Assembly (NCBI RefSeq): GCF_963921235.1
Contig: NC_086097.1
Span: forward strand, 121,770,001-121,834,000
Reading direction: 5' to 3'
DNA from: Mobula hypostoma
Taxonomy: Eukaryota
Length of the DNA: 64,000 nt
Numbering within the stretch: the first letter of the stretch is position 1; every line of letters starts with the position of its first letter. Below are positions 2,700 to 3,190 of this stretch, piece by piece. The translations under genes and the position numbers were made by a program. The notes beneath the pieces were generated by a model, which saw only the letters and a program-made list of their open reading frames with translations, made no database searches and was not told where the DNA came from.

Positions 2700-3190
2700 A
2701 AGAAAACTAGTGTTTTCTGGATAGGAGACATAGAAGATCAGATCTGGGAAACCTGGGAAAAATGGAAAAAGGGCATGCAGGCCATATTGCCCAAGGCGGA
2801 AGCGCCCAAGTCTGAGTTACATTGCACAGTAATTTTTGACGAGACTCAGAGTAAGGCGTTAGAGGAGAGATGGCACGAGGGGACATGTACCCGGCAGCAC
2901 CTAAGAGGAGAGGCTATAATAATTGGAAAGCAAGGGGCAGCCCTACAAATCAGGTGGAATACCTTCTTGGAAAAATGGTATAGAATACCAGAGGCTGTGC
3001 CCCACATAACGTTGCTGGTGAATGAAGGATACCAGTCTAAAGACCTAGGTCCCTTAGTAAAACGCGCTGGAACCGTAACGGTTTGGAGGAAAATCATGCT
3101 GGAGGTATAGGCATTGGGAGACAACAACTACATCAAAATAATGGTAGATATAGATATGACAGGAACTATAAAGGAGCTCGAAGTAATTCC
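2700..3190 (+). other. 2H phosphoesterase-like domain inside Pol, between protease and RT
   Basis: ELHCTV (His codon 2820-2822) and VPHITL (His codon 3003-3005), 61 aa apart in one frame (ORF 2595..3110). In-frame TAG at 3108. Domain boundaries approximate. Confidence 0.75.

Follow-up and report, generated by a model that had tools for sequence, protein, structure and literature searches.

A CNPase-like 2H phosphoesterase domain between protease and reverse transcriptase in the Pol of an endogenous retrovirus from a ray

Domains of the 2H phosphoesterase superfamily have been noted in fish retroviruses before. According to the passage of PMC9503650 that concerns them, such domains were detected in walleye dermal sarcoma virus (WDSV) and walleye epidermal hyperplasia virus 1 (WEHV-1) by Mazumder et al. 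2002, and a passage of PMC4977317, citing Basta et al. 2009, states that Epsilon-like endogenous retroviruses (ERVs) of ray-finned fish may encode CNPase or macro domain proteins. Here we describe a 2H domain that lies between the protease and the reverse transcriptase (RT) in the Pol of an ERV of the ray Mobula hypostoma. The provirus was found in a stretch of 64,000 nucleotides (assembly GCF_963921235.1, contig NC_086097.1, positions 121,770,001 to 121,834,000), which was analysed as a whole and is referred to below as the window. The initial annotation of this stretch, in which the domain was first proposed, supposed that 2H domains had perhaps already been noted in fish retroviruses, and the two papers bear this out.

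Viral 2H phosphoesterases (ns2, VP3, Acb1 and the avian poxvirus enzymes) are a lively topic, but since 2002 and 2009 the retroviral members have remained a footnote of computational work; in the search listing of a 2025 preprint on viral 2H phosphodiesterases (10.1101/2025.08.21.671373) there is no occurrence of 'retrovir'. The domain was known before only as a computational note, and what is new here is its cartilaginous-fish host and a firm assignment to the CNPase type. To the earlier picture are added a version embedded in Pol that is of the CNPase and not of the ns2/VP3 type, selection on the domain that matches the protease and RT, and cartilaginous fish, which join teleosts as hosts.

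The closest described proteins are vertebrate CNPase and fish RICH (PF05881; structures 2xmi and 2i3e), which are the best fold match of the domain and have in common with it the motifs HCTxx[F/Y] and H[IV]TL and a glycine aligned with Gly324 of CNPase. CNPase, however, has a kinase-like N-terminal half and a C-terminal membrane anchor, both of which are absent from the ERV domain, and its catalytic domain comprises ~215 residues, whereas the ERV domain has ~165 and is located inside retroviral Pol. Upstream of the ERV domain is a retroviral protease; host CNP proteins are composed of PF13671 and PF05881. The CNPase of Epsilon-like ERVs probably belongs to the same family as the domain described here, the named relatives of which are Pol fragments of teleost ERVs. 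Its hosts are ray-finned fish and the present one is a cartilaginous fish, and in PMC4977317 the passage in question speaks of 'additional open reading frames', whereas the present domain is in frame within Pol.

Fold of the domain and its relation to CNPase

In the window copy, ~210 codons separate the end of the protease from the N-terminal region of RT, which starts near position 3240, in agreement with the extra codons reported by the initial annotation. Within them, in frame 3, are two HxT motifs with hydrophobic flanks, ELHCTV and VPHITL, which are 61 residues apart and both intact; their coordinates had been given correctly, and the span of 2700 to 3190 proposed for the domain closely encloses the modelled core (residues 23-182 of the translation of 2640-3203; feature coordinates are collected in Table 1). 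The domain and the protease (2290-2601) are in different frames in this copy. An in-frame TAG that interrupts the domain was treated as X in alignment and folding.

An AlphaFold2 model of the window domain, for which 48 relatives served as the alignment, had a predicted local distance difference test score (pLDDT) of 92.0 and a predicted template modelling score (pTM) of 0.84. Its topology is beta-alpha-beta-alpha-beta-beta-alpha-beta-alpha-beta, and each of the motifs opens a strand (E62-67 and E122-127). When the model was compared with the PDB by Foldseek, all matches with E<=0.001 among those listed were to the CNPase catalytic domain or to goldfish RICH (best E 1.1e-6, template modelling score ~0.5-0.6). 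A comparison by VIA-align with 48,161 chains placed mouse CNPase (2xmi_A) at the top, with Z 15.6, 164 aligned residues and a root-mean-square deviation (rmsd) of 3.4. The next best match had Z 9.9; ranks 2-21, at Z 5.8-9.9, were by title nearly all 2H-type enzymes, including drCPDase, LigT, Usb1 and ASCC1, and unrelated folds appeared from Z 4.4 down. A replicate model, built for a relative that is 28% identical (P0017; pLDDT 92.3), gave a similar picture, CNPase being matched at Z 17.1 (164 aligned, rmsd 2.8, 18% identity) and the next best structure at Z 9.8. We consider it very probable that the 2H phosphoesterase fold is real and belongs to the CNPase type. The 2H fold had been predicted from the motifs, and the structure search upheld the prediction by ranking 2H enzymes top, with CNPase first.

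A kinship to ns2, VP3 and AKAP7, also suggested by the initial annotation, was not favoured by the same comparisons. Murine hepatitis virus ns2, the C-terminal domain of rotavirus VP3 and AKAP7/AKAP18 belong to the same superfamily and carry two HxT/S motifs, and ns2 and VP3 are virus-borne, but they represent another branch of it: Z across both models was 8.4-8.9 for ns2, 7.1-8.0 for VP3 and 7.5-8.2 for AKAP18 (8.4, 8.0 and 7.7, respectively, with the window model), that is, only 7.1-8.9 as against 15.6 and 17.1 for CNPase. For the ERV domain, a 2-5A substrate is not indicated. Phage Acb1 and the avian poxvirus cGAMP phosphodiesterase also have the 2H fold (Z 6.6-7.9), but they are free-standing and cleave cyclic dinucleotides; Acb1 was matched at Z 7.7-7.9 and the penguinpox enzyme at 6.6-6.8, the window model giving 7.9 and 6.8.

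In BFVD, the top match was an unnamed entry, Q2VF30_1 (E 6.3e-12, TMq 0.81), followed by WEHV-1 Q9WHI8 (1317 aa; E 4e-10, TMq 0.70) and WDSV A4GTG3 (1159 aa; E 1.1e-7, TMq 0.69), after which came giant-virus and phage 2H proteins. The walleye viruses resemble the ray ERV in that a retroviral polyprotein of a fish host contains the 2H fold, but identity is only 12-20%. The two walleye entries are named 'Envelope polyprotein' in the BFVD table, in which the target range is not given, and the walleye-virus 2H domain may sit in Env rather than in Pol. In the ESM Atlas, phage clusters with tRNA_lig_CPD were matched with a score of 0.96; this is a lead only, and is consistent with a 2H domain of the cyclic-phosphodiesterase type.

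A link to CNPase was also observed between sequence profiles. An 87-row profile of the ERV domain was aligned by hhalign to a 49-sequence vertebrate CNP alignment with a probability of 90.2% (E 1.5e-6, 86 columns), to the same family with the 399-residue bat CNP as first row with 92.3% (E 5.6e-7), the two alignments covering 84-86 columns, and to exon 3 of the host CNP, its largest exon, alone with 77.9%. The register places HCT with HCT and H[IV]TL with HITL; we take the CNP motif histidines, His229 and His308 in the bat reference, to be those of the mouse pairs His230/Thr232 and His309/Thr311. The position of CNPase Phe235, five after the first histidine (Phe at 2835-2837 in the window), is Y or F in 112/129 ERV rows, and Gly324 pairs with a glycine kept in 122/129 rows. 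The section of PMC4643303 that treats the roles of His230/His309, Thr232/Thr311 and Phe235 in CNPase describes the base as sandwiched between Phe235 and Val321, and His and Thr mutants as losing activity. When the PDB was searched by sequence with the domain alone, nothing meaningful was found (best E 0.19, an alcohol oxidase).

The CNP gene of the host is on contig C91, and its largest exon is 100% identical to a protein annotated in a devil ray, which places the host among the myliobatiform rays. Its exons were found twice with the same scores, ~180 kb apart (C91:33776800-33781654 and 33955102-33961841), and the order in the first set is at odds with a single gene; this points to a duplication, either in tandem or in the assembly.

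Conservation and selection

When 1.84 billion representatives were scanned in full with HMMER, 161 relatives of the domain were obtained at E<=1e-3, and the motif statistics were drawn from the 150 listed of these 161, realigned to the profile. The first motif reads HxT/S in 103/117 covering rows (His in 106/117, or 91%, and Thr in 111/119), and the second in 123/136 (His in 130/137, or 95%, and T/S in 129/136). Both motifs are present in 20 of the 21 rows from proteins of >600 residues, and the two histidines, H61 and H122, are the sole invariant columns of a 49-sequence MAFFT alignment. Conservation of the motifs in related ERVs, on which the initial annotation had staked its proposal, is evident from these figures.

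A word-based search returned three stingray proteins with 74-76% identity and an intact Pol of 1385 residues at 43%. When 12 long relatives were scanned with Pfam, a retropepsin was located upstream of the domain in 7 and RT or RNase H, downstream only, in 10; RVT_1 was found directly downstream of the domain in relatives. The order protease, 2H domain, RT recurs across teleost and ray relatives. The clusters of 20 representatives were looked up, and 13 of them were named; all 13 were teleost, the hosts being cichlids, perch, danios, pipefishes, seadragon, hake, smelt and salmonids.

Neither CNPase nor 2H figures in the name of any relative looked up; the entries are labelled 'uncharacterized' or bear incorrect names taken from host genes, among them 'E3 ubiquitin-protein ligase Siah1 isoform X1', 'cell cycle checkpoint control protein RAD9B', 'neuronal calcium sensor 1' and 'NYNRIN-like'. 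Host-gene names on Pol fragments of ERVs are a contamination of gene models by proviral sequence. One relative (P0066, 843 aa) displays an RT match between two partial copies of the domain, in one of which another residue stands in place of the first His; the model was probably assembled as a chimera of nested or tandem proviruses.

In the host genome, a six-frame search gave at least 123 matches to the domain. The copies comprise one group with ~88-94% identity to the window, another with ~76-84%, and a few distant copies, and both motifs were kept in 32 of the 38 genomic copies that were fetched. The ratio of nonsynonymous to synonymous substitution rates (dN/dS) was calculated by the Nei-Gojobori method from window-anchored pairwise alignments of 20 x 17 copies, in which gap and stop codons were skipped and insertions relative to the window were dropped. 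Between the two groups it was 0.19 for the domain (dN 0.092, dS 0.478), compared with 0.16 for the protease, 0.21 for the N-terminal part of RT and 0.16 for the middle of RT. This shows that purifying selection on the domain was as strong as on the protease and RT while the lineages diverged. Within groups, dN/dS was 0.38-0.54 for all four segments, as would be expected if some of this divergence arose by decay following integration.

Two much more divergent forms, with 28-30% identity and both motifs recognisable, were located at C24:210341-218619 and C52:49844875-49853225; in the first of these the domain is followed by the RT connection, RNase H and integrase. These were the two weakest genome matches; that they might be host genes was considered and rejected, as they are more distant ERV versions of the domain. 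Since such distant versions carry the domain, several ERV lineages with it are present in one genome.

One may ask whether a domain is present at all, or whether the HxT motifs arose by chance in the long stretch that links protease and RT in a decayed provirus. The HxT pattern is short, the window copy is broken, and no Pfam family reaches its threshold in the domain. Against this stand the two confident 2H-fold models, the 161 relatives with conserved motifs, and selection like that on the protease and RT. In addition, two or more hydrophobic-flanked HxT/S motifs occurred in only 0.23% of 100,000 shuffles of a 156-residue stretch, a figure that is indicative only, the pattern having been picked after seeing the sequence. 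Conservation, fold models, structure search and selection refute a chance origin of the motifs, to which we give practically no credence.

The conservation pattern also bears on the possibility that the domain acts as a protein-binding mimic of host CNP, for example as a decoy against the action of CNP on Gag, or is a mere spacer in Pol. Cellular CNP reportedly binds retroviral Gag and blocks assembly, and the domain derives from the CNP fold. A catalytic role, however, would demand invariant histidines and kept Thr/Ser partners, which neither a spacer nor a surface for binding would need. With the histidines as the sole invariant columns, Thr/Ser partners in >90% of rows and a dN/dS of 0.19 over the whole domain, a mimic or spacer seems to us very improbable.

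Candidate function and substrates

The closest fold is that of CNPase, which points to action on 2',3'-cyclic phosphates, and on balance we favour, with some reserve, a CNPase-type cyclic-phosphodiesterase activity on RNA ends or nucleotides as the main function of the domain. Two kinds of activity had been put forward in the initial annotation; the processing of cyclic-phosphate RNA ends is favoured by the Z scores for CNPase, and the cleavage of 2-5A or cGAMP is not.

In the scenario that we consider most likely, an ancestral fish retrovirus would have captured the catalytic half of a host gene of the CNP type, without the kinase-like N-terminal half. The domain would be translated within Gag-Pro-Pol after read-through of the gag TAG and would in this way enter virions with Pol; judging by its position in Pol, it may then be cut free by the protease or be left on the N-terminus of RT. 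The two His/Thr pairs would hold a 2',3'-cyclic phosphate and activate a water molecule, and the ring would be opened to a 2'-phosphate and a free 3'-OH. Metal-independent RNases leave cyclic-phosphate ends, and RNA ends or nucleotides left by such RNases of the host would be the likely substrates. The virus might gain because cyclic-phosphate RNA, which alerts innate sensors, is removed, or because the 3' ends of RNA such as the genome or the tRNA primer are cleaned in the vicinity of the reverse-transcription complex. The opposite derivation, of vertebrate CNP from a virus, was considered as well and was rejected on general background: the layout of CNP, a kinase and a phosphodiesterase, is common to tRNA-healing enzymes.

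Several points weigh against a CNPase-type activity of the domain. Identity to CNPase is only 10-18% in structural alignments. In the Pfam scan, the window domain had no PF05881 match at E<=1, and the CNPase family was matched in only one of 49 family members, at E 0.011 and below the cut-off; other sub-threshold matches to the 2H clan across these members were to 2_5_RNA_ligase2 (6), Acb1 (2), LigT_PEase (2) and 2H-SAK (1). As the PF05881 cut-off was missed, the domain is called 'CNPase-like' here, and not a member of that family. The position of Val321 is K/R in 111/132 ERV rows and that of Arg307 is V/A, so that the pocket, and hence the substrate, may differ from those of CNPase; Tyr168 is outside the aligned part and could not be placed. 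That the two histidines share one active-site cleft is predicted from the 164-residue superposition on CNPase and the His-to-His pairing by hhalign, and the direction of capture, the packaging into virions and the release by the protease are steps that we infer. The copy pairs behind the between-group dN/dS of the domain share branches, and the value amounts to one estimate, not 340. In line with the initial annotation, which knew of no tested function, literature searches found no functional test of any retroviral 2H domain and no further paper on the matter. Finally, the characterised viral 2H enzymes that we know of all break down nucleotide messengers and do not heal RNA ends.

This last point also speaks for a different activity, that of an immune-messenger phosphodiesterase delivered by the virion, which would destroy 2-5A or 2'3'-cGAMP and blunt OAS-RNase L or cGAS-STING. 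Retroviral DNA is a ligand of cGAS, and the domain has its superfamily in common with ns2, VP3, Acb1 and the penguinpox cGAMP phosphodiesterase (Z 6.6-8.9). The sole Pfam match of the window domain was to Acb1, below threshold (E 0.013), and a second phosphate could be accommodated by the K/R that is conserved where CNPase has Val321. According to the 2025 preprint mentioned above (10.1101/2025.08.21.671373), the choice of substrate is altered by small changes in the 2H core. On the other hand, the fold is far nearer to CNPase than to any messenger-cleaving 2H enzyme (Z <9), and the 13 named hosts were all teleost, a group in some members of which OAS genes were not found, according to the relevant passage of PMC2852836.

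The host genes of this pathway, a check suggested by the initial annotation, gave a divided answer. OAS-like OAS1_C exons are present in three tandem loci (C78:31043513-31173778), with a further decayed one on C59, and this would suit a messenger phosphodiesterase. KEN (Ribonuc_2-5A) domains were found at two loci only, C36:95605461-95605984 and C68:55742884-55745691, which we presume to be two IRE1 genes, and RNase L was not detected in the ray genome by this KEN-domain search, which scored the best candidates only. All in all, we regard the destruction of immune messengers as an unlikely main function of the domain.

It is conceivable, though doubtful, that a whole fish retrovirus lineage, from rays to teleosts, has kept a captured CNPase-type Pol enzyme for a very long time, for immune evasion or RNA-end repair; if true, no enzyme of this kind would have been demonstrated in a retrovirus before. 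In this reading the enzyme would be delivered with the virion and would erase 2',3'-cyclic-phosphate RNA signals or a nucleotide second messenger such as cGAMP, or restore the 3' ends of the tRNA primer or the genome after host RNases had attacked them. The substrate of the domain would tell whether retroviruses carry an enzyme against RNA- or nucleotide-based innate sensing.

The provirus and neighbouring sequence

Positions 1-8673 of the window are most of one dead class I (gamma/epsilon-like) ERV of ~9.7 kb, a label that is based on its parts and on Pfam. The parts found are a pair of long terminal repeats (LTRs), a zinc-knuckle gag, an in-frame gag stop before pro, protease, RT, RNase H, integrase and a gamma-type Env transmembrane region (Table 1). 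The open reading frames (ORFs) 1585-2289 and 2290-2601 are in one frame with the gag TAG between them, an arrangement to be expected where gamma/epsilon-type retroviruses read through the gag stop codon. The end of the protease, NLLGRD (2592-2609), is in frame 3 and differs from the frame of the protease start because of a frameshift in this copy. The RT region contains stops at 3480-3482 and 4043-4045 and changes frame before 3677. With pol broken many times, the window copy of the provirus is non-functional, and this locus, as a dead copy, has no functional weight of its own. The best PDB match of the protease of the family is an XMRV/MLV-type protease (E 3.1e-18), and MLVIN_C is present in relatives as seen with Pfam.

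Table 1. Features of the provirus in the window (positions are those of the window).
Feature	Position	Strand	Basis
gag, degraded, several stops	45..2289	+	ORF list; TAG end 2287-2289 in frame with protease ORF
CCHC zinc knuckle in gag	2125-2172	+	Pfam zf-CCHC, E 4.1e-5
Retroviral aspartyl protease (retropepsin)	2290..2609	+	Pfam RVP, E 2e-5 on 2290-2598
CNPase-like 2H phosphoesterase domain, structured core	2706..3185	+	AlphaFold2 model, structure searches, hhalign
First catalytic motif HCTV	2820..2831	+	His codon 2820-2822 in ELHCTV; LHCTV 2817-2831
Second catalytic motif HITL	3003..3014	+	His codon 3003-3005 in VPHITL; PHITL 3000-3014
In-frame TAG within the domain, before the last beta-hairpin	3108..3110	+	ORF list, translation
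RT polymerase region	3240..4045	+	YVDD 3812-3823; ORF list and translations
RT connection and RNase H	4172..5161	+	Pfam RT_RNaseH_2, E 2.4e-16, and RNase_H, E 2.4e-21, on 4046-5500
Integrase, core 5553-5843, in a frame other than RNase H	5229..5978	+	Pfam rve, E 1.7e-14
Envelope remnant, gamma-type transmembrane region, two frames	7094..8142	+	Pfam TLV_coat, E 2.7e-7 on 7094-7789; ORFs
3' LTR	8352..8673	+	blastn of window 7901-10500 against 8 kb of upstream sequence

The 5' LTR is located 681-1013 bases upstream of the start of the window and was recovered as a single blastn match, with 93.1% identity over 333 columns (11 gaps). Taken with substitution rates generally assumed, this divergence suggests an age of about ten to a few tens of million years.

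Downstream of the provirus, two long open frames were seen at 11254-12018 on the minus strand and 12493-13623 on the plus strand; they resemble RT fragments of non-LTR retrotransposons, and one of them contains FADDTT.

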